From the NCBI GenBank assembly GCA_010093815.1, contig ML996577.1: DNA of 63,680 nt. One strand, written 5' to 3'. The notes beneath the pieces were generated by a model. The model was given only the letters and a program-made list of their open reading frames with translations, did not search any database and was not told the origin of the DNA. The stretch is from Pseudovirgaria hyperparasitica (lineage: Eukaryota). A program made the translations under genes and the position numbers. Below, in pieces: positions 1-22,581 of the stretch. Positions within the stretch are counted from its first letter, which is position 1. The number at the start of each line of letters is the position of its first letter.

Positions 1-1042
1 TCGTTTGATACTGATACTGATACTGGGGCGTAGTCTCCTTGCCATAGCCAGGACATCTTTGATGCTTGCGAAGACACTTTGTACAACCGGGGAGTCCTTG
101 GTCGCACTGCAGGATCGGACGGATTAGCGTACGGTGCAGGTCTGGCCTGGTCACTTACTTTGACCTTCTTTTTCCTACAAGCAATACATGCACTGCCCGG
201 GCGCCCGGGAAGTGACATGACGCAGGATTGACCGTGTGTCTATCCAGTGAACAGAAATTAGTTAGTTGTGACAAGATGTAAATAAGTCGAGGATGCATTG
301 GGATAGATAGAGCGTAAGAGCATTCTCAAGAGTCGCGGCCATAATGCATCCATAGTTGCAGAGACAGAGATACCATTAATTACGATACAGACCTCGGAGT
401 CTGGATCCGGATGATGGATAGCATCAAGGCACGTGATTGCGCAATGCGTCTTCTCGTGGTTATTGTTTTGGAAATAACATGATGATGCCTTTTGAGGTAC
501 AGTATGACGATGTTCTCATCAATCATCCACACTTTTCTGCGGTGTCTGTGCCTTCTTAACCGAAACTGGCCGTCTATATTACTCTGCCTCCACTTAAGGA
601 TCATAATCAGCACCGCAGTCAGTTTGAATGGAACGCCAGTACCAAACAGGAAGGCCACTCGAAACACTTATTGTTGTTGACCGCAAACGCCCAAGCCAGC
701 TGGTAGAGGTACATTTCGAATGATATTTATTAATCGTGGCTTCGTGAATGTTAGCCAGGGTGTTTATCCAAGCCTTCTGTCTCCGATTGGCTCCGTTCCG
801 CTTCCGTGACGCGCACTGTTGCTATTGCTCTTCTACCTATGCCAACTACCGTGGCGGCGGCGATTGAGGGACTGAGATGTCCGAGGGCGTCTAACCCTAT
901 GATGGATAGTCTACTGCGGATGCTACCAGAGTACCTGGTCATAGTCTTTAGATACCTACCACAAGCAGTCAAGATTGGCGTCTGAGTCCCCTGCCGGCGA
1001 TAGACGATCAATTGAGCAAGCAGAAGCTCAGCTGCGGCGTTG

Positions 1043-1050
1043 TATATAAA
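1043..1050 (+). promoter_or_regulatory. Candidate TATA box of the S41 peptidase gene
   Basis: TATATAAA ending about 64 nt upstream of the ATG at 1114. Confidence 0.4.
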
Positions 1051-1113
1051 CGACCGTTGTAGCCAGTCTGCGAGCATGTATCTTATCGCAGTGATAGCTC
1101 GTTCTATGCAGCG

Positions 1114-1491
1114 ATGATGCTTCTCGAGAACCTCCTCACGGCCTCGACGTTGGTAGGCCTCGTCTTTGCAGCTCCCACAACTCCAACTCGCAACAACGGC
1201 TCCCCTTGTGCTGCCGTGAGTTCTGCTGTCGCTGCTCAGCCAGGCGTAGCGACTCCTACTGTCGGCGCAGAGCTGGCTTATGAGTGCATCAACAGCGTGC
1301 CACTCAACAAGACGGCTGCCCTGAACCTGATCCAGGCCGTCAAGCCGTACTTTCGCTGGCAGAGCACGACCAGTTGGCTCAAGGACCCGCCGGCTGAGTA
1401 CGTCGCAAAGGTCCAGGAGCCTGTCGACATCTTTGGAGAGCTCGACGTGATTGAGGAGAATGTGAAGAGCAAGTGGACGAAGGAGTACGAG
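1114..1491 (+). CDS. Secreted peptidase S41 family (CPAF-like) protein, exon 1; the gene continues at 20651
   Basis: Signal-peptide-like N-terminus followed by PCAAVS, LAYECINSVP and WQSTTSWLKDPP, typical of fungal S41-family proteins. 126 codons end at KEYE, followed by a GTGAGT donor at 1492. Confidence 0.85.
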
Positions 1492-1734
1492 GTGAGTGCC
1501 CTTTGCTTTCTACTGTATATCAGTCTTCTTCGTCTTCTTCTTCTTGTCCAGCCGTTGGAATTAGGCTCTTTGTTTGGTGGGAACAGCCTGCCTTGCTGTA
1601 CAAAACACGGGCCTGAAGGCGCCACTTCCGGGGGGCTTTGTCTTGGCCGATACGCCCCAAATCTGCGAATCTTCCCGCCAATCTTCCCGCCAAAGATCTG
1701 CCAACTCACACGCAATCTCTCGCTAATCAGGAAT

Positions 1735-1833
1735 CCGTTTGTCCATAGTTACATGGGAAAGCTTGGCGCCCGATGCACGTCTGTGCCACTAACACGCGTT
1801 TTTATATATAATTAATATTTTACGGCATCGTCG
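1735..1833 (+). repeat. Left terminal inverted repeat (99 bp)
   Basis: CCGTTTGTCCATAGTTACATGGGAAAGC...TACGGCATCGTCG is the reverse complement of 20535-20633 except for a C>T at 1790. Confidence 0.95.
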
Positions 1834-1931
1834 CTATACTACACGTATATAGAGTCTATAACTATATAATATAGTATATAAGAGTTAGTATATATAATAT
1901 TTAGTATTTTTAACTTACTAACGCGTATATA

Positions 1932-2590
1932 TATAGTACCCTAGGGCGTTATCTATCCCGATTCCATATATAGACGAATCAACTTCCTCCTATAATATAA
2001 TATACCTATTAATAAGATTATCACTATTACTAAAGTTAGTAAGAATAGAATATATAGGACGAGGTTTAACCTTAAGATATATAGATAGAGGAATAAACCG
2101 CAGTTAACACATCATAGTCCACCTCATTAACTAAGTAATTATATAATACGATAACTACTTAAGAGACTACTTTATAAGAGCTAGCTATACCTTAATAAGA
2201 TAGCTAGATAGATATATAAAGAGTTTAATCTTACTATATCTAAATAGCTTCTATCTAAAGAGTTATCTAAGTAAGAGTAGAATCGTAAGCTATTAAAACG
2301 TATTAGTAGTACGCGCTTAGAGATAGTATATACTTTATACCTTAAGGATATCGCGGAGCTACTAGTAGACTCGTATATCTTCTTAGATAAGGTTATTTTT
2401 AATAAAAAAATTAGATAGAGACGTTAAGCTAGAGTACTAAAAGAATAGACTCTAACTAAGATTAGTACTCTTAATCGAGAATCTACGTATAGCGTATATA
2501 GAGCTATTATAGCTAATGGTTTTATCTACTATTAGATAAAGGAAGGTTATTTCTTAACGGATAAGTTCTATACCTAGCTATAAGTATATC
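1932..2590 (+). pseudogene. DDE transposase, 5' part (RIP-degraded)
   Basis: TTC TTA GAT AAG GTT ATT TTT AAT at 2380 reads FLD(E)VIFN, carrying the first catalytic Asp. Many TAA/TAG stops of RIP type. Start is approximate. Confidence 0.75.
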
Positions 2591-2818
2591 TATAAGAATA
2601 GGGTTATTGGATAGTAGTATAGTTAGATAGAACAATAGGGTGTATTCTATTATAGAACAAATTACTACCGAACCCTTTTGGTAGGAATCCGAGAGTATAT
2701 ATATAAAGGGACGCCGATCTATCTAGCACGTGACTATTTACCGCCCTTTACGTCACCTCCTATCCCTATTAGCTAAGGTACGTATAGGTCGGGTCCTATC
2801 TAAGGCTAAGTCCTAATA
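2591..2818 (-). repeat. 3' LTR of element A (228 bp)
   Basis: Direct repeat of 9746-9954 + 17971-17989. The differences seen are C/T and G/A transitions, and the TG..CA termini are mutated to TA..TA. Confidence 0.95.
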
Positions 2819-3302
2819 ATTATCCCTTCCCTCTAGGAAGCTACCCTTAGCGACCTAGATTATTATCTATCCCTATATCTCTATCCTAAGTCTCGTAAGA
2901 CCTTAGTCGTTCTCTACGCTTTATCTTAGATACTTACCGATATTCGCCGATCTAAGATTTATATAAGCGTTTTCCTAATAAACTAAATTTTATCTATCTT
3001 AACTTCTTATATAGGTGAGATTACCTAATTAGGCCTAGCGTATCACGTGATATAATTAGATAAGCCTAGATACTATCTATATTAAAATCTTTTCTTAGAA
3101 ATATTCCTTTCTTTAAAAAACTTCTTAACTCTTTATAGAGTTTTTTAGATTATTAGGTATATTACCCGATCCTTATAGATATAGATTTATATAGATTTAC
3201 TATAATTTAGTGCGATTTACGTAATTTACTAATTTTCGTACCGTCCTTAGCTAGTAATAATATAATTCGTAATAATCCGTATAAATTAATAATAATCTTA
3301 AT

Positions 3303-4284
3303 ATGGTTTCCCGAAATCTTAATACTCTAAAGTAATTAGTACGGAAATAGGCGCCTTCGAATAATCCCTATCTCGTATACGTTACCGATATATTAAAAGC
3401 TATTAATCTATCCTAACCTAGGCCGGGCTCTAATAATCTAGCTATATATTATTATGGTTATTGCTTTCCGTTATATATTACTCATAGTAGTACTAAATCT
3501 ATAATATATAGCACTTACATGACTAAGAAGCGTTATTACTTATAGGTATTTAAGTAAGTTTAAAGAACTTTACGTAGATTTACTTATATTAGTATAGATT
3601 ACTACTAGGCCTCTAGTAACCCCTACTAATAAGGAGCGTAGTACTACCGATTATAACGCCTTAGAGAAGGCTTTCTACGAGCTATATATCTAAGGTAAGG
3701 GTTACGCCTAGGAGTACGATTCTAATAAGATCTATAAGGATTTATCGGAATCTACTATAGCTATTATTACCGTGATTACTAGGTAATATCGTTTTTCTTA
3801 AATTATTATAGATTCTTACTAATATATATTAATCTCTATAATAGTACTAAAATCTCTACTACTTCGGACTTCTTTCTATATACCGGCGATATTAGAATTC
3901 CTAGAAAAGGTTCTAGTAAAAAGGCTAAGGTTCCTTCCTCGCGCATGCTAAAGAGCCGTAAATTTAGGGAAGATAGCTCTAATCTAGAAGTTTCTATACT
4001 AAAGGTATATAGTTCTATACTAATCGTTAAATCTTTTCGCTAATTTATATAATTCTTAGCGTGCCCGCGCCGGTCCGTCCCTCTCCGTCCCGGGTCCTAC
4101 CGCTCCGTAGGTTTCTATAGAGGAGTTTATAGCTATAAGGCGCGCTATATAGAATTTATAGCGTCGGAATAAAAGGCTAGAGACTTATGTTATAAAGCTC
4201 TATACTATACTAAATAAGAACTAGTGGAAGGAATTAGATGTAACTATCGCGGTAATTAGTACTTCTACTCCTACTCTAACTTAA
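3303..4284 (+). pseudogene. Spliced antisense accessory gene of element A (Cys-cluster-like N-terminus, C-terminal coiled coil), RIP-degraded
   Basis: ATG at 3303. Predicted introns 3546-3597, 3783-3844 and 4005-4059 maintain one reading frame. Internal stops are TAA/TAG, restorable to CAA/CAG/TGG. Confidence 0.6.
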
Positions 4285-4699
4285 TTAGTTTAGATCTATA
4301 CTAATCGGTACTAATATGTCTCTTTTATCTAGCGTTTTTAGTTTTTCGGTTTTAATTTTAAAGCGATCTTACTTCTTCTAGATAGATTAGTACGAGTTTA
4401 TATAGATCTATATAGATCTTTATATTTTCTTTTAGCTTTCTTAATTTTATCTTTCTTTAATAATAACTTCTTTAATCTCTTTAGTAATCTATACCGATCT
4501 ATACCGATCGGCACCGATTTTCGATGTCTATTTCTCTTAGTAAATCATTTTTCTAAGTCTTTTTTTTAGTTAAATTTTTAAAGTTCTAAGTTCGAACTTT
4601 CTAAGGAAGTTCCTTAATTCCTTAGAATATTTTAAAGATCTATGTCTCTTTTACCTTCTTCCTTTTAGACGGCCGTCCTCGGCGCTAAACTATACTAAA

Positions 4700-7600
4700 A
4701 AACGTCGAATCGCCGTACTTTGGCATAATTCTCTGCGATTCTACGGCTTCCTTTACTAATCGCTACTTATATACTAATATCGCTGCTTTGCTAATGTTTA
4801 TTATAGGTTCCCAAGTATCTTCGTTAGGATTATATCCTTTCTAATGAATTTTATATAGCTACGTGCCATCTTCGGCGCGTTACTAGCTAAGTATCTACTT
4901 AACTTCGTAGATATCTATACCTTCTTACGTAACTACTTTATATAGTATCTATTCGGAACGATCTGGTAATAATAAGGCATGAAATGGCTCGAGAAGCGTA
5001 ATATAGAATATATTATATATCTTTAACGTAGGAGGGAGTTATAACTCAAACGCCTAGTTATTAATTACACGAGTAATCTTATATAGACCTATTATCGTAT
5101 AGTTAAGCTTCTTCTTTAGCCTAATACTACGAATATTCTTGCTATTTAGTAAAACTTTATCCCTAATATTAAAGATTATAGGTTTTCTACCCTTATTATA
5201 GTGCGATTTACTATAATTCGTAGTATCTTATAGTAACTTTATAACGCTTCTTTACGTTTAGAATAGTTCTATAGTAATTTCTATTACTTTAACGTTAGGT
5301 TATTCTACTTTAAACTAAGTCCCTAAGAACTACGTATTATAGTTCTAACCAAAGTTTACTTCGAACAGACTTACGTAGGTTAACGTATATCAGCTATTAT
5401 TATACGCGAATTCCGCGATATAGACTAACCTTACCTAGTTATCCTACTTATAGTTGTAATATACGCGTAAATACGCCTCGACTATCTAATTCTACCGCTC
5501 TATCTATCTATCTATTTATAGATAGAACGTAGTACTAAGTTTCCGCTTGATTCCTAGCGTATAGTAGAAATCCTTCTAAAATTTAGACGTTATCTACGGA
5601 CCTCTATCCAAAACTATACTATTTAGTATACTATAGAGCCGGACTACGTTACGGAGTAGTATATCTATAAGATCCGGTACTTAGATCGTCTTCCTTATAG
5701 GGATGTAGTATAATATCTTTATAAATCTATCTAGAACTACGAGTAAACTATTATAAATATACCTAGAATACTTACTTAGGGGTAGATCTATAATGAAATC
5801 TATCGATAATTCCTTCTATGCCTCCTTTAGCATAGGTAATAGCCTTAATTCGCTATATAGTAAGTGTCTATATACTTTCGTATACTGGTAAACGTTATAC
5901 GTTTTTATATAGTCTTTTATATATTTATAAAGACCCAGCTAGTCGTATGTCCTTCGGATTAAATCGACCGTTCTTATAACGCCGAAGTGCTCTACTAACA
6001 CGTAATCGTACTATTCCCTTAAAACATTAATTTATAAGCCGCCTTCCGGCACGTAGAGTCGGTCTTAGAAGTAGATCGCGTCTAATTATCGTTTCTACCT
6101 TAATAACTATGGCGGATCTATAGCGCTTCCTTTTATACTTATAACTTTCTTTACTAATATATCGGAATTCTAGATAGATTTAATTAAGTCTTTAAGGGTT
6201 TTCTTAGTTTCTTAGACATTTATTTAGATTACTTAATACCCGCTCTAATTCCCGCGGAGAATCGCCGAAAGTGTCCTAGCTTCTAGTATTCTATTAGATA
6301 ACTAGTCTTATAGTATCTAAAGTATAGTATAGTCTGAATTACACCGACTATCTACGTTATTCTATGACGATTTCTTATAATCTTTACGCCGCGATAGAGG
6401 ATTAGCTTTATTCTCTCTTCTAGCTTTATATAAGATTTTAAAGTTAAATATTAATATCTACTTAGCCTAATATACTTATTAGTAATTAAGGACCTTAGTC
6501 GACATAAAGTAACGTAGATTTATATAATCTAATAATAATTCGATCTAATGTGCGGAGCCTTCTAAATAATATTGCTATTGCTTAAAACTCTCGACGATTA
6601 TAAGTAGTTCCTAGTCGTGCGTGTTATAACACGTCTCTATATCCGCCATTTTATAGGAAAAGAAAGCGACCGGGTGCTATTATACCTTATCTTTTATATC
6701 TTTATATAGTTAACTAATAATTCTAGTAATTACAAATCCTAACGCATTAGTTTCAACCTAAATATACTTCTTAGAATCAAAATACCTAAGAATCGGCGTA
6801 GTTATAAAGTAATTCTTTAACGATCGGAACGTATCTCGCGCTTCCGGCGTTAACTATATCTCGACCGACTTAGCTTTACGCTATACTCGCCTACTTATAG
6901 GGATTTTACCGCCATTCTCTATGAGTTTATTAAGCGGCGCCGTAATTTATAAGAAGCCTATAATAAATTTACGATAATAGTTCACGAAACCTATGAATAT
7001 TCTAATTTAACGTATAGTAGTAGGTTCTAGCTATTCTATAATGGTCTTTACACGCTCCGGCTCCATTTTTAGGCCGCTATATATTATAATAAAGCCAAGA
7101 AACCTAACTTCTTATTAGTAAAACTCGTATTTAGATAATTTTACGTAGAGTTTATACTGCCTTAGACGATTTAGCACCGATTTCACGTGTTCTTTATAAT
7201 TCTATATACTATCGGAGTAAATTAGTATATTATTAAGATAAACTACGTAAATCACGTTAAGTAATTCTACGAGTATAGTATTAATATATCCTTAAAACGC
7301 TCCTAGCGTATTTATTAGCCCGAATGGCATAATAGTATACTTAAAATAACTATATCTAGTCCGAAATATAGTTTTCTACTTATCTTCGTGACGAATTTAA
7401 AGTCGGTAATATATATCTTATAAATCTAGCTTTATAAAGTACTTTGCCTTCGTTAATTAGTCTAAAGATTTACTAACTAGCGGTAATAGATAACGATTCT
7501 TCTTAGTTACCGTATTTAGTGTCTAATAGTTAACGTATAGACGTAAACTTCCGTCTTTCTTCTTTATAAAGAGAATAGATACGCTAGCCGATAACGTACT

Positions 7601-9720
7601 ACGATGTATCCAGCCTCTTTTAAGGTATTCTTTAATATATTTATAAAGAACTTCGAGTTCTAGTCTCGAAAGTAGGTAAAGTAGACTATAAGGAACGTCT
7701 ACTCCCTCTTCGAGCTCGATCTTTAGCTTATACGGCCTGTGATTAGGGAGAAGTAACGTATCTCCTACCGAAAATATATCCGTATACTATGAATATACGT
7801 CGGGTAGCGTGTCTTCGCCCTAATTATTACTATTATCCTTATCTTTATCGACGATTAATAAGGACGTAAGATAGATTAGCGACGATCGGGTCCGCATGGC
7901 GAGGTTCCATGCCTCCTTACTAATAGTTACGACTTACTAGTATAATTTACTACGGTGTTATCGGAATATTAATATCTCCTTCTAAAAATTAAGGATGGGG
8001 TTTAGGCGTCTAAGCTAAGGTATCCCTAGAATCATATTCTATTAGCTAATATTAGCCACGATGAATTTATTAGATATCTACTATTTTATTATCTTCGAGT
8101 TATGAACTTCGTAATTCGTTATAGCTTTACCTAAAGTTCTAACTTCATGTCTATTAACTATAATAGTTCGGCTAACTTTACCAAGATTATACGATAATCT
8201 ATACTCCTTTATAAGAATCGATAAAATATAGTTATCTTCTATACTAGTATCCACGAGGGCCTATATAGTTTTATTACTATTTACTATAGGTAACGATACT
8301 TTTAGTAAAATTAGGTCTTTACTCGCCGGAAGGCGCTACGGCTCCTCCTAAGTATATATAATTTAGCTAAGAACGCGGTTAGGTCTTGTGTACTAGCCTA
8401 TTCTTTTTTCGGATTCTTATAGTTAGGCGAAATATATTCTATTTCTCTATACTTATAGTAATGAAGTGCGCTATAATCCTACTATTTTACGATAGGCGTT
8501 ATATTTAAGCCTATATCTTATCCTTTTCCGCGTTAAGAAGCACCGCCTCGATTATTTTAGTGTCCTCTTAACGCGTTTCTACCCCGATTTACGCTCTTCT
8601 AGCGCTAATCGCGGTAAGGTTACTCTTAATTAAACGTATTTAATCGACCTCGTTTCTAACCCGTATAGGGTTCGTCGGTTTTACCTAGAGAGCCGCGTTC
8701 CTTAAGGATGTGATAGTATTTATTAGCTTTCTCCTCTAATTCGTATAGATAGTTAAAACTTAATAATACTATTTCTAGTCTTTCGCGGATTAACGGAAGT
8801 AGTACTTCGCGAAACTAGAATATACGAATATTTTCCTATAGCGTAGAGATATTATTCTATAGGTTTTAGAGGTATTATAGTAGTTAAGTAGATGTCTAGT
8901 TCGGTCGTTATGCTACGCTTCTTAACTTAGATAGTACCTTTCTTTTACGTTCTCTATCCGTTCCGAGGGTGTTTAGTATAAATATAGCTAAATATTCCTA
9001 GGTTATCGTAGATAGTGGCTGCACTTCCTTCTATCTATCCTATTAATCGCGGGATTATAAGTCTAGGTATCATTCTCTAAACGAAATGCGTTATACTTTA
9101 GTAGAAAAGAGTAGAGGGTTATTGAGGAAGTACTTTTCGTAGTCTCTCTTCTAGTCTTTCTACTCCTTTTAGTTCTTCCCTATAAATATAGTCGGGTCTT
9201 TAGATTTTAGTATATCTAGGGAAGGAGTAGGGTAAATCGGTAACGAAGCGGCTGGGTATACGGTGGATTATCGTAACTCTAATAGTAGGTGAACTAATTC
9301 TGCCTAAATTGGTATAGGAAGTCGTCTACCTACTATCGTTCGGCGTAGTTCTTTAAGAGACTCCTTAAGTTCTCGTCTCTTTACGAGGAGTTTTGCGCGT
9401 TCTATCTATTCTTTAAGGGTTTAAATCTCTCGAGCCTAATTCGCGACGTATTCCTAAAGTTTAGCGATAGTTTATTATAATACCTCGCGTGGCTCCGCCA
9501 CGACTTATTATCCGGCTTTATATTATTAGAAGTTACTCGGCGTATCTACTATTTCTTCGTCTAAAAGCTCCGTGATTTAGTCTAATATTTCTACTTCTTA
9601 GTTAGAAACGGCCGGGATTAATACCGATTATAGAGGATCCCTATTATTTAATATAGTGTTACTTATCTCTATAGTAGATCGTGTCGACCTTCTCGGTTCT
9701 AGTTAGACTATCTTAACTAT
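4700..9720 (-). pseudogene. gag-pol of element A (RIP-degraded)
   Basis: Zinc knuckle near 8420-8460, protease ALVDT(G) near 8245-8260, RT ~7000-7700, RNase H ~6500-6800, integrase ~5300-6000, chromodomain ~4790-4920. Boundaries are approximate. Confidence 0.85.
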
Positions 9721-9745
9721 AGTACTATATAGGAAGTAATTCGAA

Positions 9746-9954
9746 TATAAGAATAGGGTTATTAGATAGTAGTATAGTTAGATAGAATAATAGGGTATAT
9801 TCTATTATAGAACGAATTACTACCGAACCCTTTCGGTAGGAATCCGAGAGTATATATATAAAGGGACGCCGATCTATCTAGTACGTGACTGTTTACCGCC
9901 CTTCACGTCACCTTCTATCCCTATTAGCTAAGGTACGTGTAGGTCGGGTCCTAC
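9746..9954 (-). repeat. 5' LTR of element A, main part (the remaining 19 bp are at 17971-17989)
   Basis: Matches 2591-2799 and is broken at CCTAC by element B. Confidence 0.95.
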
Positions 9955-10194
9955 TGTTAGGGCTGACACCAGGATGGACTCAACTAGACCACTATGGTCT
10001 AGTACGGTCCGTGACAGGTGGACCCAGGTTAAGCCAGCTAGAATAAGCGAGACCACTATATAAGTAGACCGCACATACTTAATTCCTACTCTTTAGGAAT
10101 CAACCTTATTAGGAGAGTAGACTACCCTTTTAAATATATTCCCGAATCCTCCTATGACCTATTAGACTGCTATCCTACGTCTATAATCCTTACA
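9955..10194 (+). repeat. 5' LTR of element B (240 bp)
   Basis: TG..CA termini; direct repeat of 17726-17965. Confidence 0.95.
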
Positions 10195-10235
10195 TTTTGA
10201 TTCCTCTTTATATAGCACGACGGCAGTTCATAGGA

Positions 10236-13200
10236 ATGGCTCTAACCACTCGTCATAACACTCGTGGCACCGCCTCTTATAGTAGACCTTCTCCTAACCT
10301 GAACGAGGAGAATAGTCTACCTATAACTACCCCCACCGATAACTATACCTTATAGGCTATCGCACCGATAACTCGCACGATATTCCGTGTAACTATAGAA
10401 GATATTATAGAATACGAGGATGGAGTCCATCACACTCCATCTCGGTCTAGTTCAAACCATACTAGACCTAACCTTAACACGAGGCCAGACCTTATTAACG
10501 TTGACGAGTTAATCCGTTAGAATCGTCTAACGTTAACCACACCTTATAACGACGTATATACTAGACTACACGAAGAGAGGTAACGATAGGTTTAACTCGA
10601 GCAATAACTACGCGAACTCGACGAAGCTCGAGAACGCACTACGAGACTTAAAGCTGCATTACGCGCTTTAGTTCTAGTAACGACCAATCTATATTTATAT
10701 GGACCCACACCAACTGAAACGATCCATCCTAGTCCACTACTATCCCAATTGCCCCGACCTAAGAAACTACCTCACTTCGATGGTAAAAGTAGAAAGAGTT
10801 TCCACGCATAGGCTCACTAATATAGCCGATTCTTCTATCTATTCACGAACGACAGCGATAAAATTAGATTCGCCTAGAACTACCTCGACCCGACGCCTTT
10901 AGAACGTTAGATGGCATACCGAATCGAATATTCTAAGGATGCCTATAACTAGGACACGTTCACCGAATTTCTCCTCTAATATTTTGGCGATAGGGCTAAA
11001 CGACGCGACTAGGCCCAGGGCTATATCTTCGAGACTCGATAACGAGATAATTAGTTACCGTTATAACTCCTTGAATACCTTCGGCCCCTCTAGAGAGAAG
11101 CCGAAGAAGATCGTATGATTCGATAGTGCGACGACTTTAAACGGTCCCTCGCCCTAAATGTAAAGGACCGTCTCGACCTTACAACGATAATCTCTATAGA
11201 CCTCTAAGCTCTTATAAACCTTACGGAGCGACACTAGCGTATAATAAATAATTAACGCCGCGCTGGTGTACGACTGTCTCTAACGATCCAATCTAACGCA
11301 AAATCGTCTAACTAAAACCGATTTAGTAACAGATCTCGCGGGACGTCACGAGGCCACTACCACGCCTCGAATTCAAAACCACGCGGATCGTATCGTGGAT
11401 CTCCCTACTAATCGACACATCGAGATACGAGGACCGACTCGCATAAACGATCTAAAGTCACTTACTACACCTATGGTAGAATAGACTATATAGCACCTGA
11501 GTGCCGTTCGGGGAAGCCACCGAGTGCTAATATAACTAACTAACCAGTTATATGCTATAAGTGCTAGTAGCTAGGACATATCGCGCCTAACTACCTAGCA
11601 TAGAACATAAAAAACTAATAGCCTACGAGAAACCCTCGCGACTTATAGGCGCGACCATAATAGAGGGGTAATCCTCCAAATAGTACATCGAACTATAGGC
11701 TAGACCCATCGAGGTCCCTCGTGGATAATATTAGACTATAATGCTCGATAGTAGGTCGGCCACTAACGTTATGTCGACCTAACGAGCACGAGAACTTAAC
11801 GCCGACATCTAAGCTCTAATAAGTACCATGTTCCATGGCATCGACGGTCCCATTAAGTCACACGGCACCTACACTATCAAATACGGTATCTAGGACAGCG
11901 GAGGGAAATGGAAACTCTACTGCTTAACCTTTATCGTGGTAGACAGTCCCTTCGACATGATCCTAGGTATGCCGTGGCTTAAGAAATATAACCTAAAACT
12001 AGACTTCCTTAAGAAGACAGCTGGCTGGCGTATGAACCCACCTTAATAGGAACTAGTGTAGCTTATTAACGACGAATAATTCTAGAAAGATTACGAAAAG
12101 GCGATCTCTACTATCTACGTGCTCTTACTCACGTAAAATGGTAAGCTTAATATTAAAGTGGACGAAAACCTACCACATTAGTATAAAATGTACTAACATG
12201 TCGCGTCAGCGATCGATTCCTCCGAACTACCTTAATACTAACCTACCGACCTTACTATTGATCTCGAAGACGGCCAGTAACCTTTACATGGACCTATCTA
12301 CCCTCTTTTAGAACCTAAGTTATAAGCCCTTCGAGAATATATCGAAAAGAACCTTACGCGAGGGTGGATTAGGCCTAGTGTGTCCCTAGCCGGAGCTCTA
12401 ATCCTCTTTGTAAAGAAGAAGGATAGGAGCCTCCGTCTATATGTCGACTACCGTGGCCTGAATAACATCACGCGAAAGAATCGTTACCTACTACCTCTTA
12501 TCTCCGAGTCTATTAATAGACTAGGGCGCGTAAAGATCTTTACTAAGCTCGATCTACGTGACGCCTACTATCGCCTTCGTATTAAGGAAGGCGACGAATG
12601 GAAAACGGCTTTTAGGACCCGTTATGGACACTTTGAGTATACCGTGGTCCCTTTTGGACTAACTAACGCGTTAGGCACCTTCTAAGCGTACATTAATAAC
12701 GCGCTAGTAGGCCTACTCGACACGACATGTATCGTGTACCTAGATAACATCCTTATCTTCTTAGATAACGAGGAGGAGCATATCTAGCACGTACGTGTAG
12801 TCCTAGACAGGCTAGAAAAGCATAAGCTATATATTAAGCTATCCAAATGCGAGTTCCATTAGGACCATGTTAACTTTCTTAGCTTCGTTATTACTAATCA
12901 AGGTGTAACCATAGAGAGAGATAGAGTTACTACTATTATGGACTGGCCTAAACTAAAATCCGTTCGAGATATACGTGTCTTTATTGGCTTCGCCAACTAC
13001 TACCGAAAATTTGTTAAACACTTCTCCCGTTTAGCCGCACCACTTAATACGCGCACTACTACCACCGACTCGTCTATTACGGTCCGTGGTAGACAGAAAC
13101 AGCGTAATATTAAATTATAACCTATTAAATTAACTAAGGTCGAAAGAACATCCTTCGAGAAGATTAAAGAAGCATTCCTAACCGCCCTATTGCTAGTGTA

Positions 13201-15400
13201 CTTTAACCCGACCAAACCTATTCGCGTCGAAACTAATGCATTAGGATTTGCAATCTCGGGTATACTCTCCCAGCCTAGACCAATAGAGTCTAAAAAGGTC
13301 TAATGGCATCCAGTTGCGTTCTTCTCGCGCAAGATGGCCGACGTCGAGACTAGATATACTATTTATAACCAAGAGCTGCTAGCAATAGTAGAGTCGTTCA
13401 AGTAGTGGCGATATTATCTTAAAGGTGCCATGCATGACGTTAAGTTACTAACTAATCACCATAACTTAAAGGGGTTCATAAGCACGACGGTTTTAAATCG
13501 TCGATAGGTTTAATGGGCTAAGTAGCTTATAAATTTCTACTTTGTAATCCACCATTAACCTAGAAGTATAAACCCAGCTAATAGGATGTTAAGAAGACCT
13601 AACTATGAAGAAGGCGCCTAGGATTATAGTGGCCATAGGGTCCTAGAGTAGCTGTAGGCCCAACTCTTAAGGACGAGGTTAGATAATAAGTTATCCGACG
13701 ATTAGCGAGATGCTAACGCCGATGCCGGTAATCGAATTTATAAGACCGAAGCCGGTGACCAAAGACGCGGTACCGAAGTCCCTAGCGAGCCATTTATCGG
13801 CGCTGTTAGGGAGGGCGATGGTGCCCGGCGTGTATGTTAAGTAGACCTTGCCTAGTTAATCGTGGATCTATAAAAGATAGACCCGATAGTTTTAAAGTTA
13901 CGTAAAATGTAGTAAGATAGGTTATTACGGACCGAAGTGGACTATAAGTAGACCTTCGTGGACGGCTTACTCCACTACGATGGAAAGTACTATATGCCGA
14001 CGGGCAACGCACGATTCACCGTAGTTAGCCGATACCATGACGCTAACCTAGTAGAATATTTCGGGTATGTACGCACCCTAAGCTCGATTCGTTAGTACTA
14101 TTTTTAGGAAGATATACCTAAGTACGTCGAAGAATGGATAGCTACTTATCCGATTTATTAAAGAATAAAGGCACCTAGGCATAAGCCATATGGGAACTTG
14201 CAGCCTCTACCAGTCCCCCTCTTTATATGGGAAGATGTTACTATGGATTTCATAGTTGACTTGCCTCCAAGCGAGATGCTTAGGATAAGTTATGATTCAA
14301 TTCTTATTATCGTGGATAGACTTATAAAGATGTCTAGGTACGTCCCTATGTGGAAGATGATCACATTAAAAGAACTAGTATAAGTATTCTAGAATAAGAT
14401 CATTAAGGTCTATGGTATACTAAAAAGGATCGTTACGGACCGAGGGAGTACATTCACGTCTAAATTCTGGACGTCATTCTGCGAAATGGCCGGTATGAAT
14501 AGAAACATGTTAATAGCATTCCATCCACAAACAGATGGTTAGACAGAGTGATAGAACCAAACGCTCGAGGCCTACCTTCGTGCATTCTATAATTTCGAAT
14601 AAGACGACTGGGCCTCTCTACTAAGCATAGTAGAATTCGCGTATAATAATAGTCGTTATAGTATAATAGGTGTCACGCCCTTCTAGGCGAACCTAGGACG
14701 TAGTCCAAGGATAGGTTTCGAACCTTACACGGTCTAGTTCGACCGAACGATAGATTTTAACGTCCACGCGCAGGAACTAGCGATTAAAATCTTTAAAACC
14801 GCACGCAACTATCACGTAATAATCTAGTAAGCGAATAAGTCGTATACAAAGTACTATAATAGGTTAGTTAAAGATCAAGCGTACGAGGAGGGAGACGAAG
14901 TCCTCCTTAACATCTGTAATATACAAACGTCGCGAGTGAACAAAAAGCTCGATTATAAAATGGCTGGTCCCTTCCGAATCAAACGTCGTATCGGTATAAG
15001 AGCCTACGAGCTCGACCTAGGAAACGACATGAAAGTCCATAATGTATTCCACGTCTCATTGCTTAAAAGGTTTCGACCTAACGTGTACAAACGCACGAAC
15101 GTGCAATTACACTCTATTATACCCTAAGATGGACTAGACGTGTACGAAGTGGACTATATTGTCGAACATAGGCTCGACGAGAACGGTGTCTAAAAGTATC
15201 GAATCCGTTGGAAGAACTACACCGAGGATGAGGATACCTAGGAACCTACGGTGCATATCTTAAGTGCCGCGATGGCTATATATAAACAGAGGTTATAGGA
15301 TAACACGTTACTACCGTAAACCTAGCGCCGTCGGGGCCGTCGCAAAAAGAAGAAGGATGCCGTGGAAAACGAAGTGTCGAATCACGAATCCCAAACGCAC
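10236..15400 (+). pseudogene. gag-pol of element B (RIP-degraded)
   Basis: Two CCHC knuckles at ~11460-11600, AAAAAAC at 11609-11615 directly before the gag stop, RT ORF 12380-12685, RNase H ~13200-13600, integrase 14198-14700, chromodomain ~15140-15260. End is approximate. Confidence 0.88.
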
Positions 15401-15933
15401 ACTAGGAAAACTCTATAAGGCAGCCCCACAATTCAAGCGATATACGGTTACCAAACGCGAAGAAAACGTAAATAACCGTTATAGGCACGCGACGCGATAT
15501 ATCATAATAGAATAACATAGAGAAGTCCAGAATGGACTAATATGGACCATTACACACGAGAAGAACATGGGACTAAGAAACCAAAAAGGTACCCCACTAC
15601 GGAATTAAACTCGTGATATATAATATAAAAGGTTAGAGTACCCGAACCGATGACCACTAGGCCACTGGTTTAGGTGCTCTAATATAATTTAGAGAGATAA
15701 ACCAATTTATATACGATGCCCACACTTAAGTGACTTAAAGGAAATCAGAACCTAAAATTCAATAGTCATAGAATAAATAAGAACGCACACAATATCATTA
15801 AGTTAAGAATTAAATTACTAGAAAACTGGTAGACGGGTATCTAAACGGTCTAAAAAGGACCAAAACGGATAGAAACCAGGCAGATAGAGCCAACACACAC
15901 TATATAGAAACCCTAGTAAATAGAGCCATAGAG

Positions 15934-17238
15934 CTACTCCTCCATCTTATTATTACTCTTAGAGCGTAGCGAACGAACTAACCGAGTAATAGAGCGACGG
16001 AGGTTAGAGACCTTATCCTCTAGAGTAACCACGCGCTCGGTCAGAGCCTAGTAAGACGACGACTAAGCGCTAGAGCGGAGCAACTAGACCTAAAGTTAGC
16101 TAACGCGGTCTAGAATAATCTAGAATAGAATATATACCCTCTTACGAGGTGACTTAGAAGGAGAACTAGTAGATCTCTTGCGAGACCCGTTAGTAGCACG
16201 AGGTGGGCGGGAAGGAACAGCACGAATCTCTTCTGCGGCCTTAGTGGCCAAAACCGACTCCCTAGAATAGGTAGCCTAAGCGCTAGGAATCTCGCGGCGA
16301 CTGAAAATTATAAGCTGAGGTTAATGATAATTAACGGTTTCTAAACTCACACTTTAATGACCTCTAGGAAGAGCTTATAGCGCTCCCTAAACTCCCTGCG
16401 CATAGAAGCCAGGTGACTGCTAGAACCGCCGAGAGTCTCGCGGACGCGAAGATCGTTATATACATCTTACACACGAATAGGAACCTAAAAACGCATTAGC
16501 ATGGACGACTTTAGATTACCCTAGACCAAAACAGCCTAATAGACTCACCTAAAGATAAACTTTACCGAGGACGGCATAGCGGCGGTAGCGGGTAGGGAGC
16601 TTAAAGATTAGGCGTATAGGCCCGTCGCGGTTAGTAGAGTAGTAGCTAATGCTAGAGTTAGAGCGGAAGAGATATTTAGAGCCGGTGGCGTGAGCCTTAA
16701 TGTACTTAAAGCACATCGAACCGTAGTTCGCCGTTTTCCTATGGCGCAAACCGCGACCACGTTTAGTATCTTTGGCGACCTAGGCCTTATTATTACTAGG
16801 GCTGGGTTTAGAGCGAATATTAAGGTCCTAAAAGGACCTAGAGCGACTAAGTCGGTCTATATTAGACCGAAAAGAGGAACGGCGTTTAGAGCAAGGCGGC
16901 GAAGGCGTGAACTCTCGATTATCGTCTACGACGAGATCTTCTTTATCCTCTAAAGGAGGTAGAGTAGACAGGCGGCGCGAGTAGGTGTAGGTAGGCTTTA
17001 TAGCCACCTCTTCCGCAACACCAGTACTAGGATCACCTGGATTAGAGCGACTAGTGGCCACGTCAGTGGTAATAGTAGTAGTAGCCTTAGCTACCTTCTT
17101 CTCTAACTTGGAGCGCGCCTTCACACTACTACGATGAGTGGATTTTTTAGCCGGTATAGCCGGGGTAGAGGTAATCCCTTTAGAGCGGGTCTTGCGAGAG
17201 GAGGAGGCAGGCTTGGGAACAGGACTAGTATTAGACAT
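15934..17238 (-). pseudogene. Spliced antisense accessory gene of element B (basic N-terminus, Cys-cluster-like motif, C-terminal coiled coil), RIP-degraded
   Basis: ORFs 17238-16828 and 16749-16549 share a frame. Canonical minus-strand introns at 16548-16485 (GTGAGT..GCTAAT..TTTAG) and 16350-16301 (GTGAGT..CAG) keep the frame to about 15934. Confidence 0.7.
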
Positions 17239-17725
17239 CTATACACACACGTTAGCTAGAGATCTGAGAGTGGAATACTCGTTCAGCCTCAAAGGCGATT
17301 AAAGAAGCTAAATTAGTGACCGCAACAACGCGAATAGATTATATAGGACCAGCTCTAACGAAAATAGACTACTCTAGACCCGAACGGATCTAAACTAAAG
17401 GAGATAGTATACGAATTAACGACTTACCTTAAGAGTAAGGTGGATGTACTAGAGAAGAAAATTTAGAATAAGAAAACTAAATATAAGCTTAGTTAATGTG
17501 GCGGTTATATGACCCGCGGAGCTACCTCTAAGGTAGCAGCCATGAAGTAAGGGATAAGCGCGTGCATAAATAAAAGTGAACTGGAGCTCAAGTTCACCGA
17601 TGTAAAGACTATCGATAACGTCACATAGATTCAATTGGATGCGCGCATAAACATGACGCTTTTGGAATTACGGATTTACGTATAGCTGAGTACTTCGGGG
17701 CGAAGCATAAAAAGAAGAAGGATAT

Positions 17726-17965
17726 TATTAGGGCTAACACTAGGATGGACTTAACTGGACCACTATGGTCTAGTACGGTCCGTGATAGGTGGACCTAGGT
17801 TAAGCCAGCTAGAATAAGCGAGACCACTATATAAGTAGGCCGCATATACTTGATTCCTACTCTTTAGGAATCAACCTCGTTAGGAGAGTAGACTACCCTT
17901 TTAAATATATTCCCGAATCCTCCTATGACCTGTTAGACTGCTATCCTACGTCTACAATCCTTACA
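17726..17965 (+). repeat. 3' LTR of element B (240 bp)
   Basis: Direct repeat of 9955-10194 with transition differences. Confidence 0.95.
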
Positions 17966-17994
17966 CCTACCTAAGGCTAAGTCCTAACAATATC

Positions 17995-18470
17995 TATTAT
18001 CTACCCTTAAGGTAAACTACCCTAGGTATATAATAATAATTATTATAGATAATCTTGCACTTTATACGAACTAATAGATTAAGCTACTTATACTTAGCGC
18101 TAGCTATATTATACGGTATATACTACCGTACTTACCTAACTTTAATTTTATTAAGCTTATATAGGTAGTAATAAAGGTATAGATTTATAGATAGTATACC
18201 TAGATATATTAGTAATCTCGAACTTTTAAGAACTTTCTCTATATTATATTTATATATAGCTATACTAATTAGTAGACTCTATACTTCTTTAAATATACTA
18301 TAGATAGATACTATATTAACGAGACGCTCTAGTAGAAGGTAGTCGCTAATTTAGAGAGGTTTAGATAAGATAGAGGTGGTAGAGAGATTACTAAAGTTAA
18401 GGAGATTAGGAGACTTTTTTATAAACTTATTAAGTAACTTACTCGTTACTAACTCGCCGATAAGTAAGTT
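17995..18470 (+). pseudogene. DDE transposase, 3' part (RIP-degraded)
   Basis: In frame with the 5' part once element A and one TSD copy are removed. Asp codon at 18048, then 34 codons including LPYLPNFNFI (de-RIP: PPYSPDFNPI), then the Glu position at 18153, giving DD34E. Confidence 0.8.
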
Positions 18471-18536
18471 ACTTAGCTAGCTAGTAATAGTCTATATATA
18501 TATCTATTTTAGGCACTATTCATTAAGTATATAGCC

Positions 18537-20430
18537 TTAATATATAAATATATACTTCTAAATATACTCTAAGAAATACTATACCATCCCTATCTAAATA
18601 CTAGTTATACTAGTTATAGTAAACGCCTAGAGCGAGGACGCCGCCTTACTTACCTTAAGTTACTCCTTATACTTATAAAGGTATAGACGTGCGTCTAGTA
18701 GAATACTAAGTAGAATATCTACTATCTTCGCGGCTTTATAATAAGTAGTTCTAGGCTAAGTTATCTTCTTAATATAGCGGTAAGTATAGTAGTTATTATC
18801 TATATATAGTCTTAATTTATATATTCTAGCCCTCGTCTTATTATAAGTCTCTATCTCCTTACGCTATTTAAGAGCTAATAGTACTATATCCACCTAGTAA
18901 CGCCCTAGTTATACTAGACTACTAAAGGTTTCTATAACTCGTGTCTAAGGGGGTGTTTTATAACGAGTCTTACGAGTTAGTAAATAATTTAAACTATAAG
19001 TAGATAGAGAGCGAGATTAAGGTTAAGATTAAGGAAACATAGGTATCTATATAGGTATTCTAGGATTAAATCTATAATACTATAATTCTATCTAACGAAG
19101 TAGTTAAGTATATATAAGCTTATCTTTATTATCTTAATAATATCTTACTACCGCCTCCTCGTGCTTAATTATTATCTATCTTATCTACTTATCTTAAAGC
19201 CTCGTATTCCGCTCCTTACGATCTAACTTAGCCTTCTTATATTATAATCTCTTTATTTTAAGGCGCTCGAGTATAGAAGTAGTACTTCCGTTAACGGCGG
19301 TTAACGAGGTACTAGTTCTACTACTAGTTCGAGACTTCCTTAGGCATGGTTAAGTAATAATCTTATAGAATAAGTCTATTAACGGCTTATCCTTAGTTAC
19401 CCCTTAAATACTATTAATAATATTATTAGCCTATAGCTCTAAGATAGTCTTATCTATCTTATAGTAGAGTATTCTATTAGGTAATATAATCTTATAGTAC
19501 TAACCTTAGTAGTTTATATATATCGCCTTACTATACTAGAGCTTACTCTAAATATTATTAATAATAACTTCTTAGATACGGTCTCGCTATCTTTGCTCCT
19601 CCTATAATTTAAATAGCTATTTTAAGTATCCCTTAAGGTTCGGATCTATAGGTAATAATACTAGACTAGTAGAAACTATACTAGTAAGTAGTAATAGCGT
19701 AGGAGACTTCAAATTAGATACTATAGCCTTCTTACATCCTAGTAGCTAATAAGACTTATAGATAATAGTATTCTCAAAGATAAGGAATATAGCCTCTAGT
19801 AGATCCTTTCTTACTAGGCTATAGATCTTATTAAGGAAGGTAAGAAGCTTATCCTAGTTATCTAGACTCTAGTCTAGAAGTATTAACTATTTCCTAGTAT
19901 AACTAGATATTCTAAGCTTTATAGTAAAGCCTTAAGTCTTAAATAGCTAGTTATTAGTGCCGAGAGCCTTATTAATTAACTACTAAATCTCCTCCTTATA
20001 TAACTCCTTCTTAAACTTATACTAGGCTTCCGTCTTTAGTAATATAGCCTTAATAATCTTTCTAAAACTATCTACTCTAAGTTACTAATTTATATAGATA
20101 GACTATATTATCTTATTAAGAGCCGCGTTATTATTCTATAGGTTCTCCTTCTTCTTCTTCTTAACTATATCTCTATAAACTAAAGTAGAGTTATTAGTAT
20201 TATTAAGTATATTATTTAGTAAGGCTAGAGAATCGCTTAATAAGGGTACGTTAGAGGGCGCTAGTAGTATATTTTTATACCTTACTACTATCTTTATAGC
20301 CCTTAATACCTTATCTATACTATACTAGAGTGCCTTTAATATAGATATATATAGCTATAGCCTAGGAGGTGGTAGTAGAGGTTCTATTAAGTTATCCTAT
20401 CCGAATTAAATACCTTTACGCTACTTAGAA
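18537..20430 (-). pseudogene. Putative second gene of the DNA transposon, function unknown, RIP-degraded
   Basis: Minus-strand segments read by hand (20160-19770 and 18800-18537) give protein-like frames with scattered RIP-type stops. Boundaries are approximate. Confidence 0.45.
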
Positions 20431-20534
20431 GGTATAATAGATAGTATAAAATAGTTAAAAAAACACTAATATATGGCTAATATCGTATAATACTAATATA
20501 TAATAGGTATTTTAATAGGTATATGAGTATTCGT

Positions 20535-20633
20535 CGACGATGCCGTAAAATATTAATTATATATAAAAACGCGTGTTGGTGGCACAGACGTGCATCGGGC
20601 GCCAAGCTTTCCCATGTAACTATGGACAAACGG
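20535..20633 (-). repeat. Right terminal inverted repeat (99 bp)
   Basis: Reverse complement of 1735-1833. Confidence 0.95.
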
Positions 20634-20650
20634 ATCCTTCACATCTTTAG

Positions 20651-22581
20651 TTCGGCTGGGCTCTGTATATCCTCACACAATCTACCCACGACGGCCATTT
20701 TGTTTACATTCCCGACGTTGTTAGCAAGATCTTCAACTTTGGCCGTCCAATCCCTCTCGTGTCCGTCTCCAAGGATGGCAAGTCACTCCCAGAACCATAC
20801 GCCTATCCAGACATCCTCGCATCGTCCCTCGCCAACGCCACCTTCGAACCCTCAAAGATCGTGAAGATCAACGGAGAGGACGCGAAGACCTACCTCGAGA
20901 CCTTCAGCCAGTTTGGCTCCCTGCAAGATCGCGATGCCCTGTACAACAACATCTTCTATGAGCTCGCCATTGTGAGTCTGGGTAGCTCTGGCGCTGGCTC
21001 AGGTACCTTTACAGGAGGAGGCCGAGGACGATGGGTCTACCCTGGGCCAACCACAGAGCTGACTTTCGCAAACGGCTCTGTTGCCCAGTTCCCCAATTTT
21101 GCTCGTGTTCTTGTTCCATTCACGGGAATTCAGTCAGGTGAGGATGTATACACCCAGTACTTCTCAACGCCTGCAAACACTTCTGCCGGTATCAACATAC
21201 CAAATCAACCCGAAACCACTCCCACTCCCACGCCCACTACCGCTTCTGCCGCTGCTACACCCGCTCCCGGCTACCCACAGCCAGTTGTCCGAGCCTCCAA
21301 CAATGCGATTGGAGGATACTATCTTGAAGAGGATGGGTTTGAGGATGTTGCTGTCCTGAGCATACCAAGTTTCGGCGGTGCGGGCGGCCAAAATTCCCCA
21401 ATGGACTTCCAGACCATTGGTAGAGACTTTGTGCAAAAAGCCAAGGCCGAGGGCAAGAAGAAACTCATTGTCGACCTTTCTGCAAACGGTGGGGGAATCA
21501 TATTGCTTGGTTATGATGCCTTCAAATACCTATTCCCCAAAGCGACAGCTTTCGCTGCATCTGATCGATTTCGCATCTTTGAAGCTACAGATCTCATCGG
21601 CAAGAAGTTCTCAGACGTTGCCGGTCAGTACCCACGCACTTTGGACCCGGCTCTCGGAGAGGTCGAGGCAACCGTTGTAGCCGATATTTTCAACTACCGT
21701 TCGGATCAGAAGCCTGAGGGCGTCCCTTTTACCTCGTGGGATGATAAGAATGGACCTGTTGCAAATAAGGGTGACAAATTCACGTCTCTTATCCGTTGGA
21801 ATCTTTCAGACGTCTTGACTCCGTGAGTACATCCGATGATAGGATGAGTTGATATGTGCTAACATGTCAAAACAGCTACAACGGCGGTATCAATGCGATT
21901 TCCAACGAGCCGGTAGCGACGATGGAGCAACCATTTGCCGCTGAAGACATCGTCGTCGTCACTGACGGCTACTGTGCATCAACTTGCACAATCTTTTCCG
22001 AACTCATGCGCCAAGTCGCTGGTGTCAAATATGTTTCCTTGGGAGGCCGGGCTTTCGATGGACCTAGTCAAGCGGTGGGAGGCGTCAAGGGGACAAACAA
22101 CTTGCCCTGGCCCATCATACAACAGGAGGTCGCCCTGGTCTACAATTACTCGACCCCATCAGAAGCTCAGAAGTATGATACGACGAGCTTGATCGAATAC
22201 AATGACAACCTCCCATTTCTTCGCGCAGGTCCCATTAGCCCAAACACGAACTTCCGCGATGGAATTAGGGTCGGTGACGAGACTGGCACGCCTCTGCAGT
22301 TCGTGTACGAAGAGTCCGATTGCCGAATCTTCTACACTCCAGAGATGACGGTCGATGTTACCAACATCTGGAAAGCGGTTTACGACAGTGCTTGGGGTGG
22401 CCAAAGCCACTGTGTGGCTGGTCAGCTGGGTGGTGGTTACAGCCGTGCTCGAAAGGAGAGGAGTCCAGTCCAAAGACGGGTCAGCTGGAGGCGAGATATG
22501 AGCATTCAGGACTACCCGATGAGTGTTTTCACCGATGAGAGTGCCGTGGACTTTACTGCGGACGGCTTCATGATGCCGTAA
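20651..22581 (+). CDS. Peptidase S41 family protein, exons 2-3 (20651-21822, 21876-22581); 751 aa with exon 1
   Basis: HDGHF, KKLIVDLSANGGG and the catalytic-Ser motif TDGYCASTC. Intron 21823-21875 GTGAGT..GCTAAC..CAG. No internal stops. Confidence 0.9.

Follow-up and report, generated by a model that had tools for sequence, protein, structure and literature searches.

A nested transposon between branch point and acceptor of an old intron probably disables a secreted-type S41/CPAF-like peptidase gene in Pseudovirgaria hyperparasitica

Mobile elements that settle in introns and divert splicing have long been known. Mouse and human examples are on record, among them mouse germ-line mutations in which intronic insertions of transposons or retroelements cause mis-splicing or premature transcript ends (PMC6466679), and premature termination triggered by an endogenous retrovirus (ERV) (PMC3337433). 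Here we describe a further instance in a mycoparasitic Dothideomycete, which is a new case and not new biology. Within 63,680 nucleotides (nt) of contig ML996577.1 of Pseudovirgaria hyperparasitica (assembly GCA_010093815.1; hereafter the window, whose positions serve as coordinates throughout), a gene for a secreted-type peptidase of the S41/CPAF-like family is interrupted in its first intron by a single 18.9-kb unit, a DNA transposon carrying a Gypsy-like element that itself carries a second Gypsy element. A reading of the sequence alone had offered two alternatives, namely a gene still spliced across a giant intron or a recently disabled allele. Our analysis supports the latter through a cryptic splice junction, unspliced contigs over exon 2 and gene models split in two, and we consider it likely that the insertion recently disabled the gene by redirecting its splicing and that no working giant intron exists. 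This view is carried by direct observations of how the insert is built, of a cryptic junction, of contigs that enter exon 2 unspliced and of a deposited annotation that models the gene as two halves.

The mouse and ERV insertions have in common with the window case that the element itself provides the cryptic site to which splicing is diverted, and that the product is truncated while the exons stay intact. The window case differs in its host, a filamentous ascomycete, in the exact position of the element between branch point and acceptor, with the next AG serving as cryptic site, and in the later history of the element, which two rounds of nesting and repeat-induced point mutation (RIP) have altered. 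Introner-like elements, or introners, are transposons that create new introns, and the window case resembles them in that splicing uses a site provided by the end of a transposon; in the window the intron is old, the element gives an accidental acceptor and stays in, and the outcome is a broken gene and not a new intron. Hop, a Mutator-like element of Fusarium, is ~3.3 kb long, with ~99-bp inverted ends and a 9-bp target duplication. The outer element of the window is similar in size (3.5 kb) and in the length of its inverted ends (101 nt), but it has neither a 9-bp duplication nor a transposase match. Insertions of Fot1 in the niaD gene of Fusarium oxysporum reportedly yield truncated or chimeric transcripts, and the two cases would share a fungal DNA transposon with inverted ends that knocks out a host gene; the Fot1 cases are said to be mutants selected in the laboratory, in which the elements are active and leave TA duplications, whereas the window holds a natural allele that is fixed in the sequenced strain and lacks any recognisable duplication or transposase. 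A study of pacX in Aspergillus nidulans likewise reports a Fot1-like insertion mutant (PMC4832277). Our literature searches returned no direct fungal precedent for an intronic transposon with cryptic splicing, by which we do not claim that none is in print, and the genome paper, in the passages at hand, is silent on this gene (PMC7082219).

The host gene comprises the following parts.

1114..1491, plus strand: exon 1, with its ATG at 1114 and 126 codons; the donor GTGAGT follows (1492-1497).
20651..21822, plus strand: exon 2, with the CPAF-like PDZ domain and the start of the S41 domain; the deposited protein P0124 begins exactly at 20651.
21823..21875, plus strand: intron 2, 53 nt, phase 2, of the form GTGAGT ... 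CTAAC ... CAG.
21876..22581, plus strand: exon 3, with the invariant D-G-Y-C-A-S-T-C block; stop codon at 22579-22581.

Exon 1 encodes a hydrophobic N-terminus resembling a signal peptide. The gap between exons 1 and 2 (1492-20650) measures 19,159 nt, and the frame continues at 20651 after ...TTTAG; when joined, the coding sequence of 378+1172+706 = 2256 nt gives 751 codons plus the stop, with no internal stops. Coordinates and translation thus agree with the earlier statement that exon 1 joins exon 2 in frame across this distance in a stop-free frame of 751 codons. At the junction itself the residues ...EYE/FGW... are gapless in 26 of 27 aligned homologues, the remaining one having a 10-residue gap exactly there.

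Exons 2 and 3 together (P0124) score 131.3 bits against PF23658 (CPAF-like PDZ; cut-off 27) and 30.1 bits against PF03572 (Peptidase_S41; cut-off 24), the latter falling to 22.7 bits, under the cut-off, with exon 2 alone. Both gathering scores being exceeded for the joined exons, the predicted product is by Pfam a Peptidase S41 with a CPAF-like PDZ domain. At E <= 0.001 a homologue search retrieved 320 proteins, of which the top 120 are ~690-900 amino acids (aa) long and nearly all from Dothideomycetes; identity to the closest is 61%. The window gene resembles this fungal family in its domains and shows ~60% identity to many Dothideomycete members of ~750-770 aa, and it differs from them in being interrupted and annotated as two proteins. 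Columns were counted if conserved in at least 95% of the best 120 of the 320 homologues. There are 154 of these, 18 of them in exon 1, and the window protein retains 152, including the D-G-Y-C-A-S-T-C block, whose Ser is presumably, by analogy, the nucleophile. When each of the 120 homologues was left out in turn, the median number of deviating columns was 2, and 73 of the 120 deviated at two or fewer, so that the two deviations of the window protein are no more than those of the median homologue. Because 152 of the 154 columns are kept, a figure equal to the homologue median, the frame is intact and undecayed. The two deviating columns sit together just past the exon 2/3 junction (around 21800-21920), as a missing S and a change of G to S. 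Neither the protein sequence nor a profile of 27 sequences matched a solved structure. In the matches to the exon-1 query there is also a UniRef entry of 344 aa (P0281; E 6e-16, 38% of the query) labelled as a mitovirus RNA-dependent RNA polymerase, which appears to be mislabelled or chimeric.

The place at which the gene was entered is bounded by what is left of its original first intron and by the two ends of the outer transposon.

1492..1732, plus strand: 5' remainder of original intron 1, 241 nt, without RIP; contains CTAAT at 1723-1727.
1733..1833, no strand assigned: left terminal inverted repeat, 101 nt; contigs from other copies diverge at 1732/1733.
20535..20635, no strand assigned: right terminal inverted repeat, 101 nt; RNA-like contigs from 20611 continue into exon 2.
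20636..20650, plus strand: 3' remainder of original intron 1, 15 nt; old acceptor AG at 20649-20650.

The motif at the end of exon 1 is present in 28 of 38 short open reading frame (ORF) calls from relatives. All of the 28 motif-bearing calls depart from the family at the exon-1 end with a V, as expected of a GT that is read through, 19 of them directly and nine four residues later (in these nine the search pattern matched one repeat early), and exon-2 sequence follows in none of the 28. Because every motif-bearing call leaves the family at this point, intron 1 is old; judged from these relatives, it is a pre-existing, conserved, phase-0 intron. The element fell in the short stretch between its branch point and its 3' splice site. 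CTAAT at 1723-1727 is the only match to CTRAY between the donor and 1748, the transposon starts 6 nt past it, and with the insert removed the distance from the branch A to the old acceptor is ~21 nt, which is normal (for comparison, CTAAC of intron 2 lies 12 nt ahead of its AG). With the insert in place, this lone CTRAY after the donor (1723) stands 18.9 kb upstream of the old acceptor, far outside the normal reach of a branch point, and there is no CTRAY in the 116 nt before exon 2 (20535-20650). The TAG at 20648-20650, which ends in the old acceptor, is in frame with exon 2. Two further features of the old intron may be mentioned. Its un-RIPped 5' part carries a short tandem duplication at 1655-1695, AATCTTCCCGCC twice, and before the insertion it would, at ~250 nt, already have been longer than the other intron of the gene (53 nt).

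Evidence on splicing comes from the contigs of four public runs that bear one organism label. Two of them (X1 and X2) are DNA runs, perhaps those from which the assembly was made; the other two (X3 and X4) belong to a different study and sample, and their contigs were aligned to 1040-21039. X3 and X4 are taken for RNA because they hold a GT..AG joint and contigs that end at exon borders. A 3402-nt contig of X4 (record 24) covers 1040-1489/91 and then 1747/49-1776, thus joining 1491 to 1749 with 257 nt skipped between GT and AG (cut at +2). In X3, a contig of 4368 nt (record 17) covers exon 1 and ends exactly at 1491, another begins at 1747, and a third of 301 nt (record 18) spans 1462-1762 unspliced. 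The removed intron and the coding sequence it leads into are as follows.

1492..1748, plus strand: intron actually removed in X4, 257 nt, GT..AG; acceptor AG at 1747-1748, 15-16 nt inside the left repeat.
1749..1811, plus strand: coding tail that the mis-spliced mRNA takes from the transposon; 20 codons, followed by TAA at 1809-1811.

The sequence-only reading had named in advance what would speak against a working intron, namely mis-splicing within 1492-1900 with no joint of 1491 to 20651, and this is what the contigs of the runs display. The choice of the new acceptor is also readily understood. Under the first-AG rule of 3' splice-site choice the spliceosome takes the first suitable AG past the branch point. 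AGs follow the branch motif at 1729, 1747 and 1760; the first lies 3 nt past the presumed branch A (1726) and is taken as too close to it for use, so that 1747-1748 is the first AG at a workable distance and its use is what the rule predicts. The old branch point CTAAT is probably still in use.

Translation of the mis-spliced frame ends at codon 147, and the resulting 146-aa product is letter for letter the deposited protein P0244, from the same contig and with the same splice junction. P0124 (625 aa, "partial") is identical to exons 2+3, and both entries are labelled Pseudovirgaria hyperparasitica. As predicted from its sequence, the 146-aa stub keeps the signal-like stretch at its N-terminus but lacks the PDZ and catalytic parts entirely.

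Exons 2 and 3 are present in the RNA-like runs as well, with shares of 0.98 and 0.96 of their words in X3 and X4, respectively. The relevant contig of X3 (record 23, 1212 nt) starts at 20611 and, if colinear, would reach exactly to the final base of exon 2 (21822); that of X4 (record 27, 2425 nt) also starts at 20611, and both cross 20650/20651 unbroken. Mean word depth is higher in the exon-2 than in the exon-1 contigs (608 versus 97 in X3, 204 versus 42 in X4), a figure not usable for ranking parts of the gene, and the interior of the transposon is nearly uncovered by X3 and X4, which we do not count as evidence. Transcripts that carry exon 2 with the 40 nt ahead of it left unspliced would be unable to give the full enzyme because the TAG stands in frame immediately upstream, because the first ATG upstream of exon 2 (20622) opens an out-of-frame ORF of ~80 codons, and because exon 2 offers no Met in frame until past the whole PDZ domain. 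Active enzyme is probably lacking.

These contigs could also be taken as signs of a new transcription unit, in which the right end of the transposon acts as an outward promoter and exons 2-3 give, from an internal start, a functional, N-terminally truncated intracellular protein. The contigs do begin in the right repeat in both RNA-like runs, and a TATA-like run lies in the inner repeat ~50-90 nt upstream of exon 2, so that the transcripts may start in this region. The same features that preclude a full enzyme speak against a functional product, however, with the in-frame TAG directly before exon 2, the ATG at 20622 out of frame over ~80 codons and no in-frame Met until the PDZ domain is passed; in addition, such a protein would have no signal peptide, and contigs cannot show where transcripts start. 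We think a functional product of this kind quite improbable. Contigs of 1674-2604 nt in the RNA-like runs also show that several distinct copies of the transposon end are transcribed together with flanks other than those of this gene, and the transposon end may promote outward transcription or let it through. Flanks of these other copies diverge at 1732/1733 and at 20636/20640.

The alternative that the sequence-only reading had placed first, a working giant intron, does not hold up well. On this view a substantial share of transcripts would still join 1491 to 20651 over the 19,159 nt and so yield the full 751-aa peptidase. Donor, old acceptor and frame are intact, 152 of the 154 conserved columns are in place and exons 2-3 are well represented among the RNA-like words (0.98 and 0.96), all of which such a gene would lead one to expect. 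Yet a joint of 1491 to 20651 was not seen in the contigs of the four runs, from which a rare form could escape; the exon-1 contig of X4 goes to 1749 instead, and the exon-2 contigs of X3 and X4 run unspliced across 20651 into upstream sequence; contigs of X3 do break at 1491 and, judging by length, at 21822, positions at which alternative forms exist. Moreover, there is no consensus branch point near 20651, and the annotation has split the gene in two. A variant of this explanation would have the paired 101-nt ends loop out the transposon, which might hide the cryptic AG and bring the branch point to the old acceptor. The repeats are 99% complementary and a long stem is possible on paper, but the idea needs splicing to wait, because the AG of the left repeat is transcribed ~19 kb before its partner. 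A working giant intron, with or without such pairing, is in our judgement quite unlikely. It is likewise a rather slim chance that a minority of pre-mRNAs escapes the cryptic splice in this way, the 101-nt ends pairing, the 18.9 kb looping out and the branch point coming to lie again ~21 nt from the acceptor. If this were true, some full-length peptidase would be made across an exceptionally long, RIPped and probably heterochromatic ascomycete intron, and the transposon would have brought its own splicing bypass.

A different objection is that the repeat block was misplaced by the assembly into an uninterrupted gene. The insert consists of high-copy repeats on which thousands of short contigs stack, no listed contig spans it in full, and the DNA runs may themselves underlie the assembly. 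Against this, a 9019-nt DNA contig of X1 extends from unique sequence flanking exon 1 as far as 1761, within the left repeat; on the other side, both X1 and X2 have DNA contigs that continue from the right repeat (20611) into exon 2; and RNA-like contigs give the same two borders (1462-1762, and 20611 onward). The empty site, that is a joint of 1732 to 20636, is absent from the contigs of all four runs of this one organism label. Even with the interior mis-assembled, both flanks of the gene would abut transposon ends, and we regard an assembly artefact as very improbable.

Several points nevertheless weigh against a disabled gene and ask for caution. Of the canonical signals of the old junction, a branch point close by is the only one missing, and the reading frame is entirely free of decay. 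The comparison included no second isolate or close orthologue that could display the empty site, the best homologue being only 61% identical. The direct cryptic joint is found in X4 only, X3 implying it through its break at 1491 and the contig start at 1747; X3 and X4 derive from one sample and one study, and their molecule type is unrecorded, their status as RNA being judged from their behaviour alone. Contigs drop rare variants, so that a minority junction of 1491 to 20651 would stay invisible, and the two gene models (146 aa and 625 aa) may have been built from the same RNA data or predicted ab initio, so that they are not independent.

On the reading we favour, that of a recently disabled gene, events would have run as follows. 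A 3.5-kb DNA transposon with 101-nt inverted ends would have landed in conserved intron 1, in the ~21-nt gap between branch point and acceptor, and two nested Gypsy retroelements would then have expanded the inserted unit to 18.9 kb. The spliceosome would keep the old donor (1491/1492) and the old branch point and take the next usable AG (1747-1748), which lies in the left end of the transposon; the mRNA would read into the transposon and end after 20 foreign codons, giving the 146-aa stub, while exons 2-3 would survive in RNA that carries the right end of the transposon and the unspliced 15-nt intron remainder. The 751-codon frame would still be open because there has been too little time for decay and because RIP is confined to repeats.

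The insert had earlier been described as a transposon-filled intron. Transposons do fill it, but as one bounded unit between 101-nt inverted ends and not as a loose stretch of repeats. The ends are 99% complementary over 101 nt, with a single C/T transition between them, and the 30-nt repeat end has 2 matches in the window against none in 100 shuffles. Terminal inverted repeats of this kind mark the outer element as a DNA transposon, and the contigs of the runs hold further copies with other flanks. Less its nested parts (1733-2590 + 17995-20635) it measures 3.5 kb with a G+C content (GC) of 28-29%.

1834..2590, no strand assigned: DNA transposon, left body; heavy RIP, GC 28%; no recognisable transposase.
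17995..20534, no strand assigned: DNA transposon, right body; heavy RIP, GC 29%.

Inspected by eye, the flanks ...AATCAGGA / CCTTCACA... share no direct repeat of 2-9 nt that would represent a target-site duplication. Twelve frames of the transposon body, translated with X at stops, gave no Pfam family at all and hence no transposase, and its stop-free pieces gave none either; the transposase of this element may have been destroyed by RIP. The left flanks of two other copies both end in ...CAGACC, and the true termini or the target preference of the element may be a few bases wider.

Within this transposon three direct repeats resemble long terminal repeats (LTRs), and their borders resolve two nested elements, which we call G1 and G2.

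2591..17989, minus strand (inferred): G1, a Gypsy-like LTR element; heavy RIP, GC 33%; 5-bp duplication ATATC at 2586-2590 and 17990-17994.
2591-2820 and 9746-9954 + 17966-17989: LTRs of G1, the right one split by G2.
9955..17965, plus strand: G2, a Gypsy LTR element in the right LTR of G1; TG...CA ends; duplication CCTAC at 9950-9954 and 17966-17970.
9955-10194 and 17726-17965: LTRs of G2, 94.5% alike over 238 nt.

To identify coding remnants, 82 stop-free pieces of the insert, each of at least 45 aa, were scanned against Pfam. Six of the 82 showed any family, five in G2 and one, weakly, in G1. Those of G2 follow each other in the Gypsy order of protease, reverse transcriptase, RNase H, integrase and SH3 on the plus strand (11894-15124), with scores above the cut-off for RVT_1 (50.1 bits, cut-off 29.6), RT_RNaseH_2 (39.2, cut-off 29.8) and SH3_Tf2-1 (66, cut-off 30) and below it for RVP_2 (19.8, just under 20.3) and rve (23.2, under 32.6); one G2 piece has in addition a second, weak match to an integrase C-terminus. 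With its LTRs, TG..CA ends, 5-bp duplication and pol order, G2 is by these sequence features a Ty3/Gypsy element. G1 probably lies on the minus strand, as suggested by a weak SH3_Tf2-1 match and an inverted 350-nt match to G2 (64.6%).

The nesting is proven because CCTAC flanks G2, ATATC flanks G1 and a DNA contig of X1 joins 2585 to 17990; from the same contig it follows that other copies of the outer element exist without G1. Both 5-bp duplications are preserved, which makes for a clean nesting of three levels. G2 (GC 43%) is far less RIPped than its hosts (GC 28-33%), and because of this and of the nesting we infer that G2 is the youngest of the insertions.

The absence of RIP composition from the exons, in the face of a heavily mutated insert, had been noted before and is borne out by indices whose ranges separate sharply. 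In parts of the insert TpA/ApT is 1.55-1.78, (CpA+TpG)/(ApC+GpT) is 0.10-0.54 and GC is 28-43%; in the exons the respective values are 0.62-0.88, 1.11-1.20 (up to 1.25 with flanks) and 52-59%. All of the 70 sites at which X1 varies from the window are transitions. The 101-nt ends are essentially free of RIP, with indices near 1, whereas the inner DNA adjoining them has a GC of 28-29% and extreme indices, so that the RIP boundary coincides with the inner edge of the terminal repeats. One possible explanation of the RIP-free ends is that an already RIPped element was mobilised in trans after RIP.

Taken at its probable value, the apparent 19-kb intron of an ascomycete resolves to a well-understood event with a clear mechanism. 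It offers a clean natural case in which position decides the 3' splice site: an insertion between branch point and acceptor passes the role of acceptor to the next AG, regardless of the DNA that holds it. It also cautions that, where a gene was disabled recently and RIP keeps to the repeats, an open frame of 751 codons gives no evidence of function. The tidy mechanism and the three-level nested, RIPped insert make the locus worth an annotation note and a teaching example. For P. hyperparasitica itself, the deposited 146-aa and 625-aa "partial" models would be the halves of one disrupted peptidase gene, and gene counts should treat them accordingly.

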